A stretch of DNA of 62,823 nt, counting the filler, from Chlamydiia bacterium (GTDB lineage Bacteria; Chlamydiota; Chlamydiia; Chlamydiales; FEN-1388): the NCBI GenBank assembly GCA_903848235.1. It is 9 parts of 9 records of this genome, joined end to end, with 100 filler letters (N's around TTAATTAATTAA, not from the genome) between each part and the next. Parts side by side here need not be neighbours in the genome. Positions count along the whole stretch, not along the records: positions 11,205 to 21,122 come from CAINFV010000268.1; 8 more parts are not named here. The stretch is one strand, 5' to 3'. The notes beneath the pieces are model-generated. The model saw nothing but the letters and a program-made list of their open reading frames with translations, was not told the DNA's origin and did no database searches. The position numbers were made by a program, and so were the translations under genes. Shown here piece after piece: positions 11,105 through 62,615 of the stretch (its first letter is position 1; every line of letters begins with the position of its first letter).

Positions 11105-11332
11105 NNNNNNNNNNNNNNNNNNNNNNNNNNNNNNNNNNNNNNNNNNNNTTAATTAATTAANNNNNNNNNNNNNNNNNNNNNNNNNNNNNNNNNNNNNNNN
11201 NNNNAAAAGGGTCTTGAATCTTGTAGGTGAGATGCCTCCACGCGAATCGACAGCAGAGCTGCTAGGCTGTCGTATCTAGACAACCGTTCACAATGGCCTG
11301 AAAGGGCTATATGTCCACATTTGTATAGATTT

Positions 11333-11518
11333 TTAGAAGCGGCAAATGTCTCGCTTGGCAAATTGTTTATCGAGTAGAGAGGTGACCGTTGTCCCTCCAT
11401 TTTTAGGGATGTGGTGAAAAAGAAGAATTTCGTTTGAAAAAAGGGAACCTGCGTCGTTGTTGAAGGTAAAAAATACCAAAAGTGGTAGTAAAAAAAGAAA
11501 GTAGGCAGAACGTTTCAT
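11333..11518 (-). pseudogene. Truncated sulfotransferase-family gene
   Basis: Signal peptide and LFHHIPKNGGTTV PAPS-binding motif, then a stop after 61 aa. Confidence 0.6.
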
Positions 11519-11566
11519 GATCGGTTTTTTGTCTCCTTCACGTGTTTTCTGGGCTTGTCGAACCTG
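11474..11566. repeat. About 90-bp degenerate direct repeat; partner copy at 12930-13020
   Basis: accaaaagtggtagtaaaaaaagaaagtaggc..cttcacg..aacctg versus accacaagtggtagtaaaaaaaagtaggc..cttcacg..aacctg. Confidence 0.85.
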
Positions 11567-11657
11567 AAAACTCCCATCATCCGCACCCGACGTCGTTCAC
11601 AAAACGGATGTTGTGTTTCTTGAGAAAGCGCTGTGAAAAATTTCGATACTCTTCCGA

Positions 11658-11689
11658 CTGGACTTTAGCATTTTTTGGGTACCGAGTTC
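11658..11689. mobile_element. MITE-A end fragment
   Basis: ctggactttagcattttttgggtaccgagttc matches the end of the 61852-62008 element. Confidence 0.85.
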
Positions 11690-11727
11690 TTAAATCATAA
11701 CTGTATGGATGGACCAGCGGTACCTAA

Positions 11728-12501
11728 TTACTTCCTACCGTCAAGCCGCCAGCTAGATTTTGGATTAAAGTTAATCATTTTGCCCGTTTCTTCTAAGCTA
11801 ACAAGCTCGACACGGGGGTTGTGTTGCATACACTGGTCGTAATACTCACTTATGCCTGCGTTCCCAGAAATATACAAAATATCGTAATCGCAATGAACTT
11901 TGTTTTTTTTAACTCGGGTTACCAAAAAATCAACTAACTTTCTTAAAATTTTATTTTTCTTAGTTGAGCAGGAAAAGACTTGACTCGCCACGCGAACGAG
12001 CTCCTCCGGCTCCCCTCTTCGAATAGGGTTCTGAGCCATCTGTTGAGCAAACTCCTGGGTGAGGATGCATTCTGTAAAAAGACGAATTTGTTTGCCGTTG
12101 CAAGGAAGAAACCCTGTCATAGACTCTACCAAAGGGATGGAGTGGTATTGCCAATAGATACCCCCAAAGTGGTACACCACAAGCCAGCGCAAAACATCAA
12201 CGTACATCACAGGACGGGCGGCATGCTGCTGGAGTACGCTCCAAATCTTCGGATAGTGTTTCAGACAAAAGTTTTTAGCCTTACTGTATGTCCACATGAC
12301 AACGCGCCCATGATCCTTCTGTACTCTTTTTTGCATTTCAAGATATGGCTGATGATCGAAATTCTGCTCGTTTTCCAATAGATGCTGATCGCGATCCCAC
12401 GGAAAATACATCATGTGGACAAGCAGGGGGGGACGATGCGCTGGCTTCGCCTCTAGTTGACTGTAGAGGCCAAGGCTCATACTCAGTACGAAAAAAACCA
12501 C
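11728..12501 (-). CDS. GT32/DXD-sugar-binding-like glycosyltransferase; 5' end possibly frameshifted
   Basis: DVLRWLVVYHFGGIYW resembles the D.LR..L..GGIY.D.D motif, but DxD is replaced by QYH. Confidence 0.6.
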   Translation of the reverse strand: MVFFVLSMSLGLYSQLEAKPAHRPPLLVHMMYFPWDRDQHLLENEQNFDHQPYLEMQKRVQKDHGRVVMWTYSKAKNFCLKHYPKIWSVLQQHAARPVMYVDVLRWLVVYHFGGIYWQYHSIPLVESMTGFLPCNGKQIRLFTECILTQEFAQQMAQNPIRRGEPEELVRVASQVFSCSTKKNKILRKLVDFLVTRVKKNKVHCDYDILYISGNAGISEYYDQCMQHNPRVELVSLEETGKMINFNPKSSWRLDGRK

Positions 12502-12991
12502 ATGCTTTTTCGAAACATAGTCACAATCTCCCGCGTTGCTATGTACTCGTTCTCGGGTGTAAGAGGGGGAGTGAAAAATTTTTCAGGTTTTCTATTCCCT
12601 CTTACACCCAGAGATCGGAGTCGTTGCTCTTCTCTCTTGATGAGGCGTTTTTGGAAGCTTTATTACTTGGCGAATCTCAGAGGTATCGTAAGACTTTTCC
12701 GCGACAAAAACACTGTAACTTTCAACTGTCAGCGGTATATGAAAGTCTAGAAAATATCAAAAGCACGATTTATGGACAGTTCAAAATTTTGCAACCATTC
12801 AACGGTGTACTGTGGAGCGATGGGCAGTGCCTTTTAATTAAAAATATTTGACACCCTTTTTTTGTTATAAATCCTTTATATCCCAGAGTTTGAAAAAAAG
12901 AAGCTTGTGCCGCATTTGGAAGAGAAAACTACCACAAGTGGTAGTAAAAAAAAGTAGGCTGAAAGTTTAATAATCGTTTTTTTTGTCTTCT

Positions 12992-14053
12992 TCACGTTTT
13001 TTCAGGGCCTGTTGAACCTGCTTGAGGAGGTGGGGGTGGAGGCGGAGCTTCTTCTTTTGGTGGTATTTGTGGGATAGGAAGAGGTCCTCGGTCGAGCAGA
13101 TACTGGCAGACAGCGATGCTGGTATTCAGGCCATTGGCAGCAGCAGAAATGCCATTTAAAAACTCCCGAGAGGCTACTTCTCCACAGGCAAAAAGACCGC
13201 TGCTTGGTGTGATGCCAGTATCTGCATAGGTAATAATAGCTCCTGAAGAGTCCATCGACGTTATGCTGTGAACGAGAGAGGATTGAGGAGTCCACTCATC
13301 GGCGAAGATAACCCACGACGCCTCTTGGATGTTCTTCGACCCTTTGTACAAAGATTCTATGAGGGCACGGCTCTTGAGGCTGTTGATAGCTGTTATCCTG
13401 TCGCTTTTTACCCATGTGATGGTGGGAAGCTTCCTGGCAATCCTCTCTTTAAGAGAGCCTGATGACTTCCAGGGGGGCTGGAGAAAGAGATAGAGACGTT
13501 TGATCCGTGCGGCAATGCGAATTGCGCATGTGAGCGTGTATTCGCTGTTGCCAATGAGGATAGCAGTGTCTGAGGAGAGAAGAAAAGATTCATCATACAG
13601 GCGTGAGAGCACCCGCGTTGGCTCCTCTGTCGTAATGACAGTTTTTAAGGGAGGGGGTTCTTTGCCAGTAGCCATGACAATGGCAGGGGCGTGGAAGATC
13701 CCCATGTCTGTTGTAATATGAAAAACACCTTGGTTTTTGGTGACAGCCTTTACGTGTGTGAAGGCGCATATCCCCCCATTCTTTATGAAGTCTTTTCGTA
13801 ATTCCTCGAGTGTTTTCTGCCAGGTCATAGCAGGGTGGCCGGGCCAGTTCGTCACTTGAAGCTTTGGATAGAAAATACCATTTTTTTCTTCATCGCACAC
13901 CAGGGTTGGATATCCTGTCTTTGCGCAGGCTGTAGCGCATGCAAGGCCTGCTGGGCCTCCACCGATAACGATGACGGCGAACGATCGTTGAATTTCTTGG
14001 CCGTAGGCACAGAAAGGTGCCAGAAGAGAGCAGAGAACGATCAAAAGCTTCAT
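12992..14053 (-). CDS. TrxB-like FAD-dependent oxidoreductase with signal peptide and Pro-rich tail
   Basis: VIGGGPAG, VMATG and GLFACGEV motifs; no CxxC; start at ATG 14053 inferred from the reconstructed empty IS site. Confidence 0.75.
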   Translation of the reverse strand: MKLLIVLCSLLAPFCAYGQEIQRSFAVIVIGGGPAGLACATACAKTGYPTLVCDEEKNGIFYPKLQVTNWPGHPAMTWQKTLEELRKDFIKNGGICAFTHVKAVTKNQGVFHITTDMGIFHAPAIVMATGKEPPPLKTVITTEEPTRVLSRLYDESFLLSSDTAILIGNSEYTLTCAIRIAARIKRLYLFLQPPWKSSGSLKERIARKLPTITWVKSDRITAINSLKSRALIESLYKGSKNIQEASWVIFADEWTPQSSLVHSITSMDSSGAIITYADTGITPSSGLFACGEVASREFLNGISAAANGLNTSIAVCQYLLDRGPLPIPQIPPKEEAPPPPPPPQAGSTGPEKT

Positions 14054-14140
14054 CATATTGACGACGCGGAAACCCAATCCTTTAGGTTTGGGAGGAAGCG
14101 TCGCTCCTTAAAATTGTTGTTACTTCTCTAGCGTTTAACT

Positions 14141-15463
14141 TCACATGCCAACCCCAAGCTGTCCAGAGCCAGCACCATCTCGGCAACACAAGTACGAATA
14201 GCCGTCAGCATTATGTTGTTTCCGGCAAAACCTGTGCGAAATCCCCTGCACAACCCCATTTTCAGTGGAAACATTGAAGAATCCGCTTGTCCTGACGGCT
14301 ACTTTTCCGCGGTATATCCCAATTTTTTTTCCAGTGGTTACGTGCGCGACGACAATGTCCCCTGTTTTAAACCCATTGACGACACGAATGGGCATTGCTT
14401 TTGACCTCTGGAAGCCATGCTTATCGACAAGACAAAGCTGCCTGTCTCCGTGCCCTGTTGCTTTGACGCTTTTGGCCCTTAGGCTAGTGAGATGGATTTT
14501 TTCTCCAGTTTCTCCAACGCAAGCAGCATCAATCCAGTGGTCTTTTGGGTATCCCTGGGAGATTCTGTTTTTTTTGGTCCTTCCACCGCTCCAGAATGTT
14601 GAGGGCAGCCCAATCGACTGGACAGCGTTTCCACAAACGAGCCTTGTTGCATTCACTGCCGCTGCGTCTTTAAGAGGCGCCTTGGCGTCCCTGAGAATGC
14701 GCTCTAGTGCCCCCGGTTTTCTTTTGAGGAACTCTCTGACATTTTGGTCCCTCTTTTTCTCGTTGCACTCACGACAGGCGAGCGTCAGATTTGAAATTCT
14801 ATTCGTTCCGCCTTTAGATTTTGGTTGGATATGTTCTACCTCTATCGGTACGTTTTCTTTTCCGCAGTAGGCGCACTTTCTTCCCCATTTTTCCAGAAGG
14901 TATTCTCGAACCTCGTATCCAAGAAGCTCACCTTGTTGGTATTCGACTCCCGACATTTCGGGGTCTTGCATCTTCTGCATATCAAAACGAACGGTCTCGA
15001 CAGCACAAAAAGAGAGGGGGGAAAGTCTCTGAATCCTCTTTGCCCACGTTTCAATATTGTGAACGCGAGACATAAGAGAAGGAGGCAGCCATCCGTCTCT
15101 GCGATGTCGATTCAGAAAGCGTGATTCCCTATGTCTGGTATGTCTGTTACGTCTTGAGCGTCGTACACCTCGTCGTTGCAGCAGCCGGTTTTTAATACTT
15201 TGACCCCGATGCTGAAGATTGATTCCGACTACGACCTTTCTCTTGTTTTTTCCATGAACCACAAGAGCAATGCCTGTCGTTTTACTCCCTGGATCAACCT
15301 TAAGTTCCAGAGGTTGGGTTTCTCCGTCCTCACGGTCCTTTAGAATGATCGTGAATGGGTAGCAGCGAAAAACCGCGGCTTTCTTGCGTTCTAAAAAGAG
15401 GCGTGCTCTCTTTGGAGTGCACGGCATCAAACGCTTTTTCGTACTTGACAAAACAAAAACCAC
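14141..15463 (-). CDS. iscB: IscB RNA-guided endonuclease (OMEGA system, Cas9 ancestor)
   Basis: PLMP-like RLMPC..RAR; RuvC-I VDPGSKTTG; Arg-rich bridge helix RRGVRRSRRNR; RuvC-II VETVRFD; HNH CAYCG..EHIQP..GG.NRISNL..C..CN; RuvC-III HWIDA; C-terminal DGYSY. Confidence 0.96.
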   Translation of the reverse strand: MVFVLSSTKKRLMPCTPKRARLFLERKKAAVFRCYPFTIILKDREDGETQPLELKVDPGSKTTGIALVVHGKNKRKVVVGINLQHRGQSIKNRLLQRRGVRRSRRNRHTRHRESRFLNRHRRDGWLPPSLMSRVHNIETWAKRIQRLSPLSFCAVETVRFDMQKMQDPEMSGVEYQQGELLGYEVREYLLEKWGRKCAYCGKENVPIEVEHIQPKSKGGTNRISNLTLACRECNEKKRDQNVREFLKRKPGALERILRDAKAPLKDAAAVNATRLVCGNAVQSIGLPSTFWSGGRTKKNRISQGYPKDHWIDAACVGETGEKIHLTSLRAKSVKATGHGDRQLCLVDKHGFQRSKAMPIRVVNGFKTGDIVVAHVTTGKKIGIYRGKVAVRTSGFFNVSTENGVVQGISHRFCRKQHNADGYSYLCCRDGAGSGQLGVGM

Positions 15464-15465
15464 AA

Positions 15466-15741
15466 ACGTTTCTCAGTTGCCCTTACGGGCCTGTATAATG
15501 TTCGCCTCGACCTTGTCTTCTGTGGGTTTTTGTAAATATCCTTCAGGGTTTACACTTCGCCCTAGCATGAACATTTACCGCAGAGTCCGGGACTGGCAAC
15601 GCATCCAGAGAGTGCCTATTTCGGCAAGGTTCCCCTTGCCATTCCACAAAATCGTCTCCTCGGATACCCGAGGGGTCTGGTCAACCGCCTTTGGAGATTT
15701 CTCCCTTCAAGCCTCTCCCTTTAGGGAGGGGTGTGGTTGAC
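15466..15741 (-). ncRNA. omegaRNA (HEARO-like) scaffold; guide predicted from the 5' flank, about 15742-15760
   Basis: Minus strand starts GTCAACC..CCCCTCCCTAAAGGGAGAGGCTTG..GGTTGACCAG, followed by several hairpins and a 3' GCCCGTAAGGGC hairpin directly upstream of iscB; 3' boundary approximate. Confidence 0.85.
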
Positions 15742-16778
15742 GTTGACGCTTCCTCAATAAGTGATCGAATAAGATCCGTGTCTGATGGCGGCTGAAGAGG
15801 ATCGTTCGGTAAAGATGGGATGACAGTCAGATGGTCGAAGTTTGGAAAGTCAGGACTGTCGATGGCCGCTAGAATCCTATACGCAATCGCCCCTTCTTCA
15901 AGAGGTGATACGGAAGCCACCGTTGCTACGCGAAGGCCTCTTGGAAAAATACCATCCAGGCCGCTGGTTTCTAAAAGGTCGCCGGGCTTTATCAAGAGGA
16001 TTTTCTGCTCTTGCAGCGACTTCTGTCCTGTCCTCAGATCCCTTTTTGGGCCCTCTTCATCATCGAAGTCGTAGTTAAATCCAACACCTCGAAGTATTGT
16101 AGGCGATGATGGGTATTCAGCACCCTGCAGCTCCCCCTTTGCCAGCCGTAACTCACTGCTCTGAGGGAGGGATTGAAGGAGGCAGTCGAGGAGACGAGAA
16201 AGAGCGGATGCCAGCTCTGGCTTTGGCAGCAGGGAGGGGTTCAGAGCGGTTGCTTTTTGAATCTCCTGAACAGCTTGGACGAGATGTCTGACCTGGCTAT
16301 TCTCACGAACTACTCGTACGGCAGGACGCACATACGGGTCGGAGAGCAGCCGAACGCGGCTTGCCTTTTTCCCAACAAAATCAATGATTCCTACGAGTGA
16401 ATCACGAACCACCACAGGGCAGTTTTTCTGTAAGCGAAAGGAAATGCCAGGCGTCTGTTTTCCAATATCGATCCACACAGTGTTGCTCCACGGTGTGTTT
16501 GCTTGGAAAATGACATTGGCAACTCGATATGGATATCGATTTTCTAGTGCTTCTCCAGAGTCTGTTGCTGCGGCTTGGCGTTCTTCTTCGTGCTCTTCAG
16601 CCCATGAGATGAGGGCGTCTTGCGGTAGACTGGATGGCTGTATCTCTGCATTGCCACTGAGCATCGATGCTACGATGCTTGATGCTCTCGTATGAATAGA
16701 GCGATTTGCCTCTTCGGGAAGCCCGATGAGGGTGGCAGCAAAAAACCATAATGGAAGAAACCATGTCTGTGATGACAT
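15681..16778 (-). CDS. mreC: Rod shape-determining MreC-like protein; last 19 aa supplied by the IS
   Basis: VWIDIG, PVVV..LVG.I..VG...SRVRLLSDP and GDLLETSGLDGIFPRGL.VA.V motifs. Confidence 0.8.
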   Translation of the reverse strand: MSSQTWFLPLWFFAATLIGLPEEANRSIHTRASSIVASMLSGNAEIQPSSLPQDALISWAEEHEEERQAAATDSGEALENRYPYRVANVIFQANTPWSNTVWIDIGKQTPGISFRLQKNCPVVVRDSLVGIIDFVGKKASRVRLLSDPYVRPAVRVVRENSQVRHLVQAVQEIQKATALNPSLLPKPELASALSRLLDCLLQSLPQSSELRLAKGELQGAEYPSSPTILRGVGFNYDFDDEEGPKRDLRTGQKSLQEQKILLIKPGDLLETSGLDGIFPRGLRVATVASVSPLEEGAIAYRILAAIDSPDFPNFDHLTVIPSLPNDPLQPPSDTDLIRSLIEEASTSTTPLPKGRGLKGEISKGG

Positions 16779-16872
16779 TACCCTACCTCGATGTACTCCA
16801 TGGTCGAACACCCGCGAAATGTGGGATTAAGAGTCAAAAGCCACTCTTATTTGTAGAATACATCAAATTCCC

Positions 16873-16902
16873 TTGAGACAAAAGGGGAGTCTTTTCTACC
16901 AT
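16873..16902 (+). promoter_or_regulatory. Putative sigma70-type promoter of tRNA-Ala
   Basis: TTGAGA-N18-TACCAT ending 13 bp before the tRNA. Confidence 0.5.
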
Positions 16903-16915
16903 TGAATCACCTTCC

Positions 16916-16988
16916 GGGGCGTTAGCTCATCTGGTAGAGCGCAACAATGGCATTGTTGAGGCGATCGGTTCGAGTCCGATACGCTCCA
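16916..16988 (+). tRNA. tRNA-Ala(GGC)
   Basis: Acceptor stem GGGGCGT/ACGCTCC with G3-U70; anticodon arm CAACA-ATGGCAT-TGTTG; GGTTCGAGTCC T-arm; CCA not encoded. Confidence 0.96.
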
Positions 16989-17000
16989 GGGTTTCTTTTT

Positions 17001-17113
17001 ATACCCAACCAATTCTTCAACTTGTTTGGGCATATCTCCATCTATGATAAATGCAAGAAGTCTAAAGAGAGAACGCTCTGCGAAATCGGTGCCTCAAAAA
17101 TGCTAAAGTCCAG
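17001..17113. mobile_element. Composite remnant of a collapsed MITE-B (17001-17031) and a MITE-A half (17041-17113), just downstream of tRNA-Ala
   Basis: atacccaaccaattcttcaacttgtttggg and tctatgataaatgc..tgctaaagtccag. Confidence 0.8.
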
Positions 17114-17285
17114 CGTAGCTCTTTTGGCGGCATTGCGATATTCTTTCGCAGGTTATTATGTCGAGTGGGACTGGTGAAGAGTAGGCCCGGTATTCAAAAA
17201 AAAGTTTTTTGCTTTTTTTGATCCGCGTTCTACACTCTCTCAAAGAGCCGTTATAAAGAAGATAGCATCAATTGAAAGGGTGTGT

Positions 17286-18920
17286 ATGACTCAGTCTTTT
17301 GAAGAGTTTACTCCAGAACAAGAAGCCTTGTTAGGCCGTTTTGTCACGAATACGAAAAGCTCTATCTTTGCGCTCTACAACCTTCCAGAGGTTGTCAAAG
17401 GAGCTCTCTTCTCCCGCTATTCTCGGTCTACACTTGGATTGCGGTCCTTGCTTTTACGTGAATTTCTCTTGAATCAAGAGGAGTCTGGCCTGACAGATAT
17501 GCAGGGAGGTGTATCAGAGACCTTCATGAAAGACCAGCTGCTGGCGATAAAAAAGGCACAGAGTTTCTATGACCGTATTTTGGATGGTTATGGCGATGAT
17601 TCGATAGGAGAGCTCGGCGGAGCCCACCTTGCGATAGAAAATGTCTCTATGATCGCTGCAAAAGCCATCGAAGACTGTCGCATTGGTGGCTCTCCTCTTG
17701 AAAAATCTACCCGCTACATCTATTTTGATCAAAAAATTCAGGGGGAATACCTTTTTCATCGGGAAGCTGTCCTCATGACCTCGGCTTGGAAGTCTTTGTA
17801 TGTGAATACCTGTAACATGCTCTTTGACACTTATTCTCGACTCATCCCTCCATTGACAACATACATGACAAACAGATACCCCAAAGAGCCCGAGGTGTCG
17901 ACAAATGCTTATACAGCTGCTGTGCGTGCCAAGGTCCTCGACTGTGTCAGAGGGCTTCTGCCAGCGTCAACGCTGACCAATATAGGTCTTTTTGGCAATG
18001 GCCGGTTTTATGAAGGCCTCCTTCATAAAATGCAGGTACAGAATTTAGCGGAGCTGCGTGAGATCGGGCGTCTTTCCTACGACGAATTGTCAAAGGTCAT
18101 CCCGTCTTTTGTCAGAAGGGCTGACAGCCATCACAAGACCCATGTTCAATATGCTCAATTTCAAGAGGCCATGCGCTCTGAGCTGAAGACATTGGCAGCC
18201 ACCGTTCCTCAAGAGCACAAGACTACTCCCTCCACCTCTTCTGTTCGTCTTATTACGTCCGATCCTGATGCCGTGCTGAAAGTTGCCGCTGCTCTTTTAT
18301 ATTCCGAGACAGATGTTGGGATGTCAGATCTCTTAGAATATTGCCGCACGATGGACCATGAAGAGGTGGCGAAGATTCTCGACGCGGCCGCTGTGTATCG
18401 TGAAACGCGTAGAGATAAATCTCCCCGTGCCTTAGAAAATGCTGTTTTTACCTTCGAAGTGATCACTGACTTCGGGGCGTATCGTGATCTACAACGCCAT
18501 CGCACCCTCACACAAGAGCGGCAGCTGCTCACCTGCAATCTTGGATATTATGTTCCTAAAGAACTATCCGAAAGCGGGGTGGAAAAGGAATATCGTACTG
18601 CCATGGAGGCTGCTAAAGTTGCTTTTGATACTATTTCAAGAGAGCTTCCTGAAGAGGCGCAATATCTGGTGCCAATGGCATATAATATCCGTTGGTACTT
18701 TACCATTAATCTTCGGTCGTTGCAGTGGCTCTTAGAGCTACGCTCGCAAAGTGCTGGGCACATTTCATATCGCCTTGTGGCTCAGCAGATGGCGCGAAGC
18801 GTCATCGATGCGTTTCCTCAATTTGAGCGGTTTTTACGCTTTGTTGATTATGATGGGCATGACATAGGGCGTCTGGATCAAGAAATACGAGCAGAGCAGA
18901 AAAAGATGGCAAGTACGTAG
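17286..18920 (+). CDS. thyX: FAD-dependent thymidylate synthase, two-domain chlamydial type
   Basis: GALFSRYSRS, YGDDSIGELG, EKSTRY and RDLQRHR motifs; about 545 aa. Confidence 0.92.
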   Translation: MTQSFEEFTPEQEALLGRFVTNTKSSIFALYNLPEVVKGALFSRYSRSTLGLRSLLLREFLLNQEESGLTDMQGGVSETFMKDQLLAIKKAQSFYDRILDGYGDDSIGELGGAHLAIENVSMIAAKAIEDCRIGGSPLEKSTRYIYFDQKIQGEYLFHREAVLMTSAWKSLYVNTCNMLFDTYSRLIPPLTTYMTNRYPKEPEVSTNAYTAAVRAKVLDCVRGLLPASTLTNIGLFGNGRFYEGLLHKMQVQNLAELREIGRLSYDELSKVIPSFVRRADSHHKTHVQYAQFQEAMRSELKTLAATVPQEHKTTPSTSSVRLITSDPDAVLKVAAALLYSETDVGMSDLLEYCRTMDHEEVAKILDAAAVYRETRRDKSPRALENAVFTFEVITDFGAYRDLQRHRTLTQERQLLTCNLGYYVPKELSESGVEKEYRTAMEAAKVAFDTISRELPEEAQYLVPMAYNIRWYFTINLRSLQWLLELRSQSAGHISYRLVAQQMARSVIDAFPQFERFLRFVDYDGHDIGRLDQEIRAEQKKMAST

Positions 18921-19036
18921 TCTGATTTTTCGAAAAAGTTAAACCGTTGCACCCATGACAGCAACCTCTCTAAGCGTGATTCAGATTGATAATACCAACT
19001 ATATTTGGTATTATACCATTAATAGGGGATTGGCCT

Positions 19037-19225
19037 ATGCCTATGAGTGGCAAAGAGATGGGGAAGCTTTTTCAGAGAGAAGGTTTTGAGATCATTAAGG
19101 GTCAAGGGAAAGGGTCTCACATAAAACTGAGAAAGGGTTTTATGACGGTCATTGTGCCAAACCATAAGGAATTGAAAAAAGGACTCGAGCACGCCCTTAG
19201 AAAGCAGTTGGAGGAAGTAAAATGA
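19037..19225 (+). CDS. hicA: HicA-family toxin
   Basis: GKGSHIKL..VIVPNHKELKKG. Confidence 0.9.
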   Translation: MPMSGKEMGKLFQREGFEIIKGQGKGSHIKLRKGFMTVIVPNHKELKKGLEHALRKQLEEVK

Positions 19226-19647
19226 AATACCATTTCAAAATCCACAGGGAATCCGGTGGATTCTGGGCTGAGTGCTTGGAGATTCCAGGTTGTATGACCC
19301 AGGGTGATTCGAAAGATGAGCTTTTTGCCAATATGCAGGAGGCGATTAATACATGTCTCGAAGAGCCGGAGGGGGGGGCTTTTTTAGCGCCACTTCCAGA
19401 CGACTCCTACACTCCCTCACGCTCTGTAGTTGAAGTACGTGTGGATCCCGAGATTGCCTTAGGATTTATGGTTAGGCGTCATCGTATACAAGAAGGTATG
19501 ACGCAGAAAGAAGCCGCAAAAAATCTTGGGATGAAGAACATATTTAGTTACCAGAGGCTGGAGCGTCGGTGTAATACAACCGTAGGAATGCTCGGGAAGC
19601 TACTCGTATTGTTCCCATTACTCTCGCTCAATAAAGTGTTTGAATAG
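19222..19647 (+). CDS. hicB: HicB-family antitoxin with C-terminal HTH
   Basis: FWAECLEIPGCMTQGDS.DE...NMQEAI; XRE-type HTH; ATGA overlap with hicA. Confidence 0.9.
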   Translation: MKYHFKIHRESGGFWAECLEIPGCMTQGDSKDELFANMQEAINTCLEEPEGGAFLAPLPDDSYTPSRSVVEVRVDPEIALGFMVRRHRIQEGMTQKEAAKNLGMKNIFSYQRLERRCNTTVGMLGKLLVLFPLLSLNKVFE

Positions 19648-19920
19648 GTCGCCTGAATCAATCTCGCAATACTCTTGCAAACTTTGAGCACTCAAGCCAT
19701 ACGACGACCCTTATTTCCTTGAATTATACACATTTTAATTGGAAAATCGCCCTTACATTTGCCAAGGGTTGCGGTTTGACCCTTGCGAAGCAGCCTATAG
19801 TGTACTATGGGCGATGCAGCAAGGTTCCCAAATGCAAGCTAAGGCATAAACCAATTCTTCAACGTGTTTGGGTATAAAGGTGATTTTCCAATTAAGATGT
19901 GTATAACCACGAGATGTGAG

Positions 19921-20814
19921 ATGACATTGCTTCAACAGATTTTTTCCCGTTTTTTTGCCGTATGGATATGCGTATCCTTGTCCGCTCTTTTTTCTTCTGA
20001 AAATACACCCCAAAAATCGCCGGAATTTTTCGTTGTCATCCCCTCGTACAACAACTGCCAATGGTGCGAGAGAAACCTTGAATCTGTCTTTGCCCAGACG
20101 TACCAAAATTGGACTCTTTTCTATATCGACGACTGTTCCACAGATGGCACTGGGGAGCTTGTTGACAAGTATGTAAAGGCTAGGGGCATGGAGCAAAAAT
20201 GCTTCGTTACCCATAACAGCGAACGCCGTGGTGCCATGGCGAATTTATATTTTGCCATTCATCAAGCGGCTCCCGACAAGATTATCGTTGACATTGACGG
20301 TGATGACTGGTTGTCCGACACTCAGGTTTTTCAAACACTCGCTGACGCCTATAAAGATCCATCTTGTTGGATGACCTATGGCTCATACCAATACGAACCC
20401 GGTGGGGAAAGAGGAATCTGCCAGCCAATTCCAGAAAGTTTCTTAGTGACAGGTGTCTATCGAGCGGACGGAAGGTGGATAACGTCTCATTTGAAAACGT
20501 TTTACGCAGGCCTGTTTCATAAGATAAAAAAAGAAGATTGTATGAGGGATGGAAAATTCCTTGAAATCACTTCAGACGTAGCTATTATCATTCCAATGTT
20601 TGAAATGGCGTTACCAAATCATATTCGTTATATCGATCGCATCATGTACATTTACAATTTTCTGAATCCCCTGTCAGATACACGACGACGCCTCTTACAA
20701 ATCGAGACAGACTTTTACATCAGGTCTTTGGAACCATACAAGCCGATCGGTGAGCTTTTCCCCAAGCAGCCCATAAGTGAGCAAGCAGAAATCGTTTCTC
20801 TCCAACCAAGTTGA
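19921..20814 (+). CDS. Family 2 glycosyltransferase
   Basis: VVIPSYN, IDDCSTD and DGDDW motifs; the stop codon lies inside MITE-B. Confidence 0.9.
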   Translation: MTLLQQIFSRFFAVWICVSLSALFSSENTPQKSPEFFVVIPSYNNCQWCERNLESVFAQTYQNWTLFYIDDCSTDGTGELVDKYVKARGMEQKCFVTHNSERRGAMANLYFAIHQAAPDKIIVDIDGDDWLSDTQVFQTLADAYKDPSCWMTYGSYQYEPGGERGICQPIPESFLVTGVYRADGRWITSHLKTFYAGLFHKIKKEDCMRDGKFLEITSDVAIIIPMFEMALPNHIRYIDRIMYIYNFLNPLSDTRRRLLQIETDFYIRSLEPYKPIGELFPKQPISEQAEIVSLQPS

Positions 20815-20961
20815 AGAAGCAGGAATTTGCCAATGCCGAAGGCCATAGATTCGATTTCGAAAAAAACAGGCCAACTATTCGCTATAGGGGCTGTTTTTTC
20901 GGAGTCGAAGGTGGGGTTTTCGGCTAAGGCAAAAACCGATTCTTCAACTTGTTTAGGTCTA
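20802..20961. mobile_element. MITE-B copy (opposite orientation to 51943-52106)
   Basis: ccaaccaagttgaagaa..ggggttttcggctaaggcaaaaaccgattcttcaacttgtttagg. Confidence 0.85.
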
Positions 20962-20977
20962 TTTTGCTTTGAGAAAA

Positions 20978-21122
20978 GGGTTCGTAGCAGCTCAATAAAT
21001 TGAGGACTTTTATGGACAAAAATGGACTTTTTGTCTACATTTTGATTCATGAAAATATCAATTGGAAAAGCAGCAAGAGAGCTTGGCGTCACCACTAAGA
21101 CGCTTCGCCGTTGGGAAGCAGC
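20978..21122 (+). mobile_element. tnpA: IS607-family left end with the start of tnpA (serine recombinase, ATG 21049), truncated by contig end
   Basis: MKISIGKAARELGVTTKTLRRWEA (MerR-like HTH); GGAC direct repeats at about 10-bp spacing; near-identical copy at 57846-57985. Confidence 0.8.
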
Positions 21123-28211: not shown

Positions 28212-28585
28212 TCAACGAGTCTTTGCTATCATTGGAATTCTTTTCGGATGACCACGGCCGATATCATTATAAACGCTGATTACCGCCTGCTTGCGAAGTA
28301 GAGGCTTTTGCCGGACGACGATATCAATGTCCATTCCCAAGTCATTCAAGAAGTGAATCAGTCGCTCAACAGAAAACCCTTCAAGTTTGCGCCGCATTAA
28401 AGCAGACACCTTTGGCTGATTAATCCCCATCACTTTGGCTGCCGCCGCTCGGGTCATTTTTTTCTTCTTAATGATCTGCTCAATTTCCCATACGAGCTTA
28501 GCCTTCATAAGCTCCTCTTCGGGATTGTCAACGCCAATATCCGCGAAGACATTACCACTGCTCATCTCGCATTCGACTTCTTCAA
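28212..28585 (-). CDS. XRE/HigA-like antitoxin (HTH_37-like); 5' end interrupted by MITE-A
   Basis: SSGNVFADIG..PEE, GINQPKVS and GFSVERL motifs; frame stays open (EEVECEM) up to the MITE TSD; internal ATG at 28565. Confidence 0.8.
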
Positions 28586-28744
28586 CTGGACTTTAGCATT
28601 TTTTGAGACCGAGTTCGCATTCGTTGTCTCTCAGACTTCTTGCATTTATCATAAATGGCCTGCCCAGGCCGATCTATGATAAATGCAATCGTCTGAGAGA
28701 CAACCCTCTGCGAACTCGGTGCCCAAAAAAATGCTAAAGTCCAG
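28586..28744. mobile_element. MITE-A, intact 159-bp foldback element with TTCAA target duplication
   Basis: CTGGACTTTAGCATTTTTT..AAAAAATGCTAAAGTCCAG; TTCAA on the left, TTCA then N on the right. Confidence 0.9.
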
Positions 28745-28995
28745 TTCANNNNNNNNNNNNNNNNNNNNNNNNNNNNNNNNNNNNNNNNNNNNTTAATTAA
28801 TTAANNNNNNNNNNNNNNNNNNNNNNNNNNNNNNNNNNNNNNNNNNNNAGCTAAGGAGATGAAGAGAAAAAGCTAAGCAACTAGACAATGATGGGTAGGG
28901 TTTACCCAACCATCCCGAAGAGGGACAGAACCGGCAAAGATAATTGTCGTTGACCGGAAAAGATAATTGACGCGAAACAGTCTCGAGAAGAAAAA

Positions 28996-49921: not shown

Positions 49922-50313
49922 GAACTTGATCCTTATAGAATAGATGTATTGTTTAATTAGGTTTTGTTGAATTTGAGACAATAACATAAAGCGAAAGTTT
50001 TTGTAAATAATTCGCAATTGTTTTCAACATGCTAAATCGGCGTAATGGTGTGCGTGATATTTTGTCGTGTTGATTTTTATCTTGACATGAGGCTAGGTAT
50101 TCATGACTTTTGAAATAGCAGTTTGAACTGGACTTTGCAAATTTTTTGGACTCATCTTCGGTGAGAAGCTTCCCACAGCTAAATGAATTTCTCAGGAAGG
50201 GTAAAAATGCCCATCCCCTATAAAATTCATTACGCTGTGGTTTGCTTCTCCCTCGAATATGGGTCCAAAAAATTTGCAAAGTCGAGTTTGAAGTGTCCAT
50301 ACTGGAGGAGTGC

Positions 50314-57845: not shown

Positions 57846-57985
57846 GGGTTCGTAGCAGCTCAATAAATTGTGGACTTTTATGGACAAAAATGGACTTTTT
57901 GTCTACATTTTGATTCATGAAAATATCAATTGGAAAAGCAGCAAGAGAGCTTGGCGTCACCACTAAGACGCTTCGCCGTTGGGAA
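57846..57985 (+). mobile_element. tnpA: IS607-family left end with the start of tnpA (ATG 57917), truncated by contig end
   Basis: One mismatch to 20978-21117; different left flank. Confidence 0.8.
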
Positions 57986-61744: not shown

Positions 61745-62615
61745 AAAAGAAGATACCGTGATCTCAGAATTCCTAACGTCGATTGGACCATGGCGCGATT
61801 ACGTCGTCATCGGAGGTGGTTACGCTCTCTTTATCTACAAATTGTATCTGACTGGACTTTAGCATTTTTTGGGCACCGAGTTCGCAGAGGGTTGTCTCTC
61901 AGACGATTGCATTTATCCTCGATGGCCTGCCCAGGCCGCTCTATGATAAATGCAATCGTCTGAGAGACAACGAATGCGAAATCGGTCTCAAAAAATGCTA
62001 AAGTCCAGTCTGACTACCCAAAAGTTGGGCCCCCCTCCAATAGGAACAAGGGATATAGATTCTCTCATCCCTAGAACAGTTCCCAAAATATCAGAAAAGG
62101 ACATCGCAGGACATCTCCTCAACGCAGGTTATACACATGTTTTTAAAGACATGGACACCCCTCCCTCTGAAGCATATCTAAAAGAGATCGATGGGTTGGA
62201 GGTGGAGATCGAATTTCTGACGAACAACGATACTCGAACTGACAAAGACAAAAACGTCGTCGTTGCTGGCGTGAACGCCCAGCCTTTAAGCTATTTGATC
62301 ATGAGTTTGCGAACGACCAAGGAATTTCAAACTTTCTCGCACGAAAGAGGGCGTGTTGTTTCCCCTGGCGCCTGGATGTTTCACAAGGGACTTACCTTTA
62401 CAAGGCGACAAAGCCCTTCGAAAGCCCTGAAAGACCTTTATGGGATCTGGTATGTCACCACTCAGCTAGGAGACTTTTCAAAGCACGCCATTGTTGAGTT
62501 CAATGAGCTAATACTGGAGCATCCAAAATGGTATGTGATATTTCAGAAAAATTTAGACAATTGGATAGCAAATGCTTCCGCTCTCCAAAACATGTTCATA
62601 GTTGATCATTGCTGA
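61734..62615 (+). pseudogene. AbiEii/GSU2403-like nucleotidyltransferase toxin interrupted by MITE-A
   Basis: Removing the MITE and one TSD gives MEFEKE..VVIGGGYA..YLTTQKLGPPPIGTRDIDS..IEFL..HKG..KDLY; with the insert there is a TAG at 61860. Confidence 0.85.
61852..62008. mobile_element. MITE-A, intact 157-bp foldback element with TCTGA target duplication
   Basis: TCTGA at 61847-61851 and 62009-62013; arms are near-perfect inverted repeats. Confidence 0.93.

Follow-up and report, generated by a model that had tools for sequence, protein, structure and literature searches.

The window analysed here is a stretch of 62,823 nucleotides, filler included, joined from nine records of the genome of a Chlamydiia bacterium (GCA_903848235.1). 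In the part taken from CAINFV010000268.1 (positions 11,205 to 21,122), an insertion sequence (IS) element that carries iscB, and with it an RNA-guided nuclease, lies between mreC and the gene of a trxB-like flavoprotein, directly before the ATG of the latter. Elements with such ends are found mostly at start codons, and their left end carries a candidate ribosome-binding site (RBS) for the gene behind it. The features of the locus, with the target-adjacent motif abbreviated as TAM, are as follows.

14054-15741, plus strand: the complete element of 1688 bp, a non-autonomous member of the IS200/IS605 family (ISC) that lacks tnpA and has no target duplication; delimited by paralogue boundaries and an empty-site contig
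14050-14053, minus strand: target and TAM, ATGA (TCAT on the plus strand), host DNA; serves as the trxB-like start codon and doubles as the mreC stop codon at the empty site
14061-14104, plus strand: left-end hairpin in predicted folds, outer stem 14061-14067 with 14098-14104, inner stem 14073-14092
14069-14072, plus strand: left DNA guide GAAA (+16 to +19), predicted to specify TCAT
14104-14110, minus strand: candidate split Shine-Dalgarno (SD) sequence TAAGGAG, with a putative function, at the base of the hairpin on its 5' side; the linear distance to the host ATG is 50 bases, reduced to 7 unpaired bases by folding
15708-15741, plus strand: right end, with guide CAAG (15708-15711), a hairpin and terminal TGAC (15738-15741)
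14141-15463, minus strand: iscB, 440 residues, RRXRR and HNH; NF040563 at 435 bits against a cut-off of 175
15495-15741, minus strand: HEARO/omegaRNA scaffold, RF02033 at full length, 81.8 bits, E 5.8e-16; its 5' end is the right end of the element
15742-15760, minus strand: predicted omegaRNA guide, the last mreC codons including the native GAGGA RBS of the trxB-like gene; guide placement after Meers 2023
15681-16781, minus strand: mreC with 19 extra codons read into the element; PF04085, PRK14872 below its cut-off, and C-terminal lengths of relatives
12992-14053, minus strand: trxB-like flavoprotein gene, 353 residues, hydrophobic N-terminus; below the TIGR01292 cut-off

A tRNA gene (16916-16988, plus strand) lies divergent from mreC. 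The best-scoring MreC model, together with ends of the same kind in named Chlamydiales records, indicates that the host is probably a chlamydia-like bacterium of environmental origin.

Identity and exact ends of the element

The stretch 14054-15741 is an ordinary member of the ISC (IscB) elements, of IS200/IS605 type, and both this kind of element and its ATGA target are already known. Subterminal hairpins, a fixed target of 4-5 bases and the lack of a target duplication, as expected of ISC elements, are all present. The IscB protein has the domains PF14239 and PF01844 and matches IscB structures in a PDB search, and the RuvC and HNH motif residues D57, E156, H211 and D312, which we take to be catalytic, are all in place. 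The HEARO score is 1.2 bits below the RF02033 gathering score of 83, a score exceeded by five paralogues in G000, the contigs of the source genome, which we searched for further copies of the element ends. No TnpA is encoded within the element; G000 holds three PF01797 fragments, two of them at contig ends.

The preliminary description of this DNA drew the ends of the element at exactly 14054 and 15741 and located TTCAT at 14049-14053, GAAA at 14069-14072, CAAG at 15708-15711 and TGAC at 15738-15741. All four motifs are correctly placed and the ends are right, as copies elsewhere in G000 break at the same points: 17 of 18 left-end matches adjoin TCAT (E<=0.003; four weaker matches left out), all 23 right-end matches finish in TGAC (E<=0.0025; five weaker matches left out), and the flanks diverge immediately beyond the ends. 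An alternative TCAT site, which had been given as 14057 and in fact ends at 14056, is excluded because the bases after 14053 are common to 4/4 of the closest copies, and a right end at 15747, offered by a 6-base direct repeat, is ruled out by the empty-site contig.

Computed removal of 14054-15741 leaves mreC ending in ...EEAST and a stop codon that shares bases with the trxB-like ATG, and it places GAGGA 9 bases upstream. This junction had been predicted from the sequence, and it is found in run X7 of another study (P4), where one contig has a single differing letter between 14053 and 15743; it thus lacks exactly 14054-15741 and has one substitution at 15742. The contig has a depth of 3, a short side of 69 letters and 8 differences in 167, being ~95% identical on the mreC side. 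Both of its sides are single-copy host genes, the mreC stop/trxB-like start overlap is kept and the 6-base repeat is largely native. The other runs of the four examined (X1, X3 and X5) have no joint at the site. The gain of 19 residues by MreC, also anticipated, is borne out by the C-termini of its relatives, which match the short form; where an insertion lies at an overlap, the upstream protein usually gains 5 residues from the right end. The trxB-like gene directly follows mreC in G003 and G014, the two genes being 5 bases apart or overlapping by 1 base; this gene order is found at 2 of 19 relative loci. The same-genus genome G001 gives no empty site for comparison because the trxB-like gene is not behind its mreC.

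TnpA of IS608 pairs guides in the element ends with its cleavage sites, and by the same rule GAAA would specify TCAT. The extension of this rule to the present element stands broadly: GA(A/T/G)A, in which only the third base varies, occupies the guide place in 93 of 105 ends, mostly at +15 to +17; the profile used to collect these ends had itself been seeded on similar ones. Five G000 left ends (C146, C168, C282, C192 and C96) are an exception that counts against it, having AAGA instead of the expected GAGA and all adjoining TCAT nonetheless; either the mismatch is tolerated or the guide register is different. The base after ATGA is A in 196 of 240 ends. The principle of DNA guides in element ends is found in Meers 2023 (10.1101/2023.03.14.532601).

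Start-codon bias of ATGA-targeting ends

Insertion sites were collected from IscB relatives, from a search for such ends in 400 genomes belonging to the phylum, from five genomes behind named loci, from TnpB relatives and from viral contigs sampled by an end-core pattern (the first 120 matches), with frame length used as a stand-in for gene calls. The expected ATGA is found at 186 of 200 hairpin cores. Among 185 distinct sites, 176 have 200 or more bases downstream and 129 of these open a frame of 50 or more codons at the ATGA; the background for other ATGA in the same flanks is 24% (cellular) and 31% (viral), and 27% in G000. The phylum end-search table supplied 60 further regions, 57 with ATGA and 55 of them new, of which 37 open a long frame. 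Combined, there are 231 usable ATGA ends, and at 166 of them a frame of 50 or more codons begins, as compared with 24-31% of other ATGA. Moreover, where both ends were found we could rebuild 51 empty sites: 39 of these are start-like and 2 are internal Met codons, against a G000 background of 12.7% start-like.

The bias is common to IscB elements (33/38 with long frames), TnpB elements (41/60) and gene-less HEARO copies (10/11). It is a bias towards start codons and not, as had been proposed from this one locus, towards stop/start junctions as such: a survey of ATGA insertions gives overlaps at 8 of the 39 start-like rebuilt sites, near the background of 53 among 364 confident ATGA starts in G000 (p=0.26). 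ATGA alone is not sufficient for the bias, because in G000 9 of 10 ends of the present type open a frame of 70 or more codons at ATGA, yet none of the six ATGA sites of the TnpB-type end (four true ends and two palindromic derivatives) opens a long frame. This difference within G000 suggested a cause confined to IscB, which we reject since TnpB ends elsewhere show the same bias. When 73 long downstream frames were scanned, 37 matched NCBIfam, many from their first residues, and the products include PolA, RpsF, MurG, YbeY, LolB, UbiB, V-ATPase E and, twice, SctV, with matches that begin near the N-termini.

Like genes recur behind such ends in separate genomes, namely sctV twice (L106, L360) and, labelled by visible similarity, ThyX-like (L103, L396), ParA-like (L378, L397) and MerR-like (G000 C168, L097) starts twice each; these are possible hot spots. 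Two Firmicute plasmid IscB elements with the same hairpin (L445, L447) adjoin GTGA, a possible start codon, and a 232-base element with these ends (L277) lies at a stop/start overlap on a contig labelled as a giant-virus bin.

A candidate split Shine-Dalgarno sequence in the left end

Read on the strand of the host ATG, the left end consists of an A/T-rich run, TAAGGAG (14110-14104), a 44-base hairpin and 7 bases, followed by the ATG itself. An SD-like sequence thus lies upstream of the hairpin with a folded spacing in the working range, the geometry of the split sites of phage T4. We scored such sequences against the 9-base anti-SD sequence with a threshold of -5.5 kcal/mol, picked after the first set had been inspected. 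A match stands at the hairpin foot in 74% of 185 ends, compared with 4-12% in intervals further upstream and 26% in shuffled sequence; it is present in all 47 of a later set of chlamydial-phylum sites and in 183 of 232 ends overall. The motif is spread over 48 of 78 end families (under 80% identity) with 49 different stem-arm sequences, and occurs in 45 of 66 TnpB ends, in which this strand carries no coding sequence. Its folded spacing to the ATG peaks at 7-9 bases, as against 6-9 for native sites, and in the present copy six of its seven bases have a predicted unpaired probability of 0.49-0.83. A conventional SD 3' of the hairpin is found in thirteen families, only two of which have both, a split partly forced by stem pairing.

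Building on these observations, we consider it likely that a non-autonomous element sits before the host ATG, that its left end re-supplies initiation and that selection leaves copies on start codons. A TnpA acting in trans, as the family would imply, may have pasted the IscB element beside TCAT, directly before the trxB-like ATG. The mreC transcript would then run through the omegaRNA and iscB into the trxB-like gene, its mreC 3' end supplying the guide, and folding of the hairpin in the mRNA would bring the AGGAG motif, which has an A-rich stretch beside it at the 5' foot, to 7-9 unpaired bases from the host ATG, where a ribosome could use it. On this proposal, restoration of translation initiation by the left end is the reason why insertions are tolerated chiefly where the ATGA is a start codon, and selection among insertions would leave most surviving copies on start codons, those of essential genes included. 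For some IscB copies there may be a second route, as the iscB frame stops on the host ATG in 8 of 40 IscB frames. The preliminary description held that the downstream gene loses its RBS; the native site is indeed displaced, but that account is incomplete, as the left end carries a candidate replacement, and owing to the AAGGAG at the hairpin foot the gene probably does not lose ribosome binding. We also lean, a little less firmly, towards a wider claim: that in a widespread ATGA-targeting IS200/IS605 clade of IscB, TnpB and gene-less elements the TnpA hairpin doubles as a working split SD across a 44-base stem, so that such elements could settle at low cost where essential genes begin, with the host's RBS region as the IscB guide.

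Several other roles for the motif were considered and rejected. Coupling to a mini open reading frame (ORF), as in a repeat resembling the mycobacterial interspersed repetitive unit (MIRU), fails because 166 of 179 motif-bearing ends lack a start codon 4-11 bases after the motif; a mini-ORF ending on the host start is seen in 3 of the 179 and not in the present left end. Conservation of AGGAG for pairing with a conserved TCCTCC is at odds with a predicted pairing of 0.03, and conservation as iscB coding sequence with the persistence of the motif in TnpB ends. Recency of insertion as the cause of the motif contrast is not supported, on small numbers. In favour of the proposal, the minus strand within 14054-15741 has no terminator-like site; a promoter scan was at chance level, and host SD usage in viral loci gave no signal in relation to the end motif (31 vs 8 loci, p=0.23).

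Alternative explanations

Outside viruses, 113 of 140 ends with the motif open long frames and 4 of 16 without it, and for copies at contig ends the counts are 13/18 and 0/5. Against the proposal, the contrast outside viruses depends on a single cluster of 63 members and on few motif-less lineages; in viral ends the motif does not predict a long frame (26/38 with, 21/29 without), no link appears per end family (p=0.51), and within TnpB ends it is not significant (32/43 vs 9/17, p=0.13). The same side of the balance holds several further points: the predicted unpaired probability of GGA averages only 0.41 over 124 ends, for TnpB elements the host transcript would need to extend over 1.2-1.4 kb in antisense orientation to the tnpB gene, and in gene-less copies a hairpin and U-run could terminate it. 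The samples themselves derive from searches seeded on this end type, and support from plasmids is weak, with 6 of 12 plasmid IscB loci having an ATGA end and only 2 of those 6 at an annotated start; a left-end BLAST search of plasmids gave only partial haloarchaeal matches.

These results leave some room for parking at start codons without an element-borne RBS, either since starts are more accessible to TnpA or through SD-less or coupled restart, the AGGAG being inherited or otherwise used, for example as a pyrimidine tail that, on the left-end strand, follows the hairpin and damps read-in transcription. This we regard as possible but doubtful. Beyond the missing link between motif and frame in viral ends and per family, 14 of 18 viral ends without a motif on either side of the hairpin still open long frames, even a weak native SD is present in only 21 of 31 non-viral start-like empty sites, and an A-rich run adjoins the hairpin foot. 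On the other hand, 48 families have the G-rich core locked in one position, at -14 to -10, and a conventional SD 3' of the hairpin is found in 11 of 30 families without the 5' motif as against 2 of 48 with it, again partly forced by stem pairing. The motif-less chlamydial lineages, moreover, are off start codons, with 0/6 on starts in G000 and 0/9 in a second subfamily, where the motif is visible in only some copies. A C-rich tail is also a poor terminator, which speaks against a damping role.

A bias specific to IscB, in which only insertions behind a host promoter yield a guide-bearing omegaRNA and are kept by homing, is improbable as the cause, though it might still add to the effect. An upstream-gene orientation bias of IscB elements has been published, as has the reliance of the IscB omegaRNA on transcription from outside the element (Meers 2023), and the long-frame shares of IscB and gene-less HEARO copies exceed that of TnpB, but TnpB ends are themselves far above the 24-31% background with no need for a host promoter. 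Finally, steering by the ATGA target to stop/start overlaps where both genes survive, leaving the downstream gene without an RBS, describes this site and 8 of 51 rebuilt ones and agrees with typical right ends giving a stop after 5 extra residues, but is highly improbable in general given a share of overlaps at background, 31 of 39 start-like sites without an overlap, and ATGA-targeting TnpB-type ends in the same genome that avoid starts.

Element derivatives and other repeats

G000 also contains reduced forms of these elements. On C45, C96, C168 and C192 there are gene-less elements of 355-374 bases that consist of the left end and the whole omegaRNA, with a hairpin and U-run between. Two second-family IscB elements (C4:1434-2886 and C146:1866-2949) have a left end that leads into a copy of the 3' part of the omegaRNA and next into the 3' end of iscB, the iscB being frameshifted or truncated. 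Small palindromes in which one end is fused to its own inverted copy occur at L116 (G000:C197:22853-22908), L117 (G000:C57:11662) and L118 (G000:C100:4893-4930); each contains two left ends or two right ends and is bordered on either side by TCAT or TGAC, and they offer a possible route from IS ends to repeats like the repetitive extragenic palindromic (REP) sequences.

Apart from these, a near-perfect palindromic repeat of ~165 bases (about -100 kcal/mol), resembling a miniature inverted-repeat transposable element (MITE), is present in the window at 28580-28746, 61847-62013 and 50127-50290, with a half copy near 17030-17113. The repeat matches 56-57 of the 284 contigs, or 24 in the case of the variant at 50127, and frequently lies where a contig ends. 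One 140-base end is found on 6 contigs, in the window at 20977-21117 and 57846-57985, running into a frame whose beginning is MerR-type helix-turn-helix-like; we take it to be possibly an IS607-type left end.

Discussion

The N|ATGA target and the sharing of ends between ISC and antisense tnpB elements are described in Kapitonov 2016 (PMC4810608). The transposons ISC1-1_MA, ISC2-1_HM and ISC2-1_MS and their IS605B partners resemble the present element in having iscB only, a 5'-GT terminus and insertion 5' of ATGA without duplication, as well as ends shared with antisense tnpB elements and short gene-less derivatives. The main text of that paper, however, does not contain the terms 'start codon' or 'initiation codon' and is not known to describe an end-borne RBS. 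The ISGst5 IscB element (Meers 2023) is similar in its TAM, TTCAT, in guides in both ends, an omegaRNA at the right end, a co-oriented upstream gene and related elements termed PATEs; the analysis in that source differs from ours in scoring the orientation of the upstream gene, not a downstream start codon or a left-end RBS. Neither start-codon parking nor an RBS within the element end turned up for IS200/IS605 elements in our literature searches; subscription papers (for example Altae-Tran 2021, Weinberg 2009 and the IS608 structural papers) and supplements lay outside their scope, so that a prior mention is possible.

Partial parallels exist in other systems. IS900 and IS901 use the chemistry of the IS110 family, unlike IS200/IS605 elements, and IS900 is reported to employ the host signal for its hed gene, in contrast to the present element, which appears to provide the host gene with an RBS in return. 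Both IS900 and IS901, as cited in Plague 2010 (PMC2942039), park between a host SD and start codon. In T4 genes 25 and 38 (PMC3014915) a hairpin between SD and AUG likewise gives a working distance, but it spans 22-27 bases in fixed genes, as opposed to 50 bases in the putative site here, whose hairpin is also the TnpA recognition end of a mobile element. IStrons (reviewed in PMC13565253) are also of IS200/IS605 type, harmless to the host gene and carriers of an RNA-guided nuclease; they depend on group I intron splicing, whereas harmlessness here would come from site choice and translation signals. Indeed, an Rfam scan of 12000-18000 to E 1 found no intron family, and iscB and HEARO fill the element.

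What is new relative to the papers found is a possible answer to the question of why ATGA is targeted: most surviving copies lie on start codons, even those of rpsF, polA and murG, and the left end seemingly carries a replacement RBS. If our proposal is correct, it would explain why ATGA or ATGAA is so common as the TAM of both IscB and TnpB, and it would provide selfish elements with a splicing-free way to be harmless, an intron-free counterpart to IStrons. It would also take initiation at a split SD beyond two T4 genes, to a mobile end that is common, and such insertions would rewrite the translation signals of their hosts.

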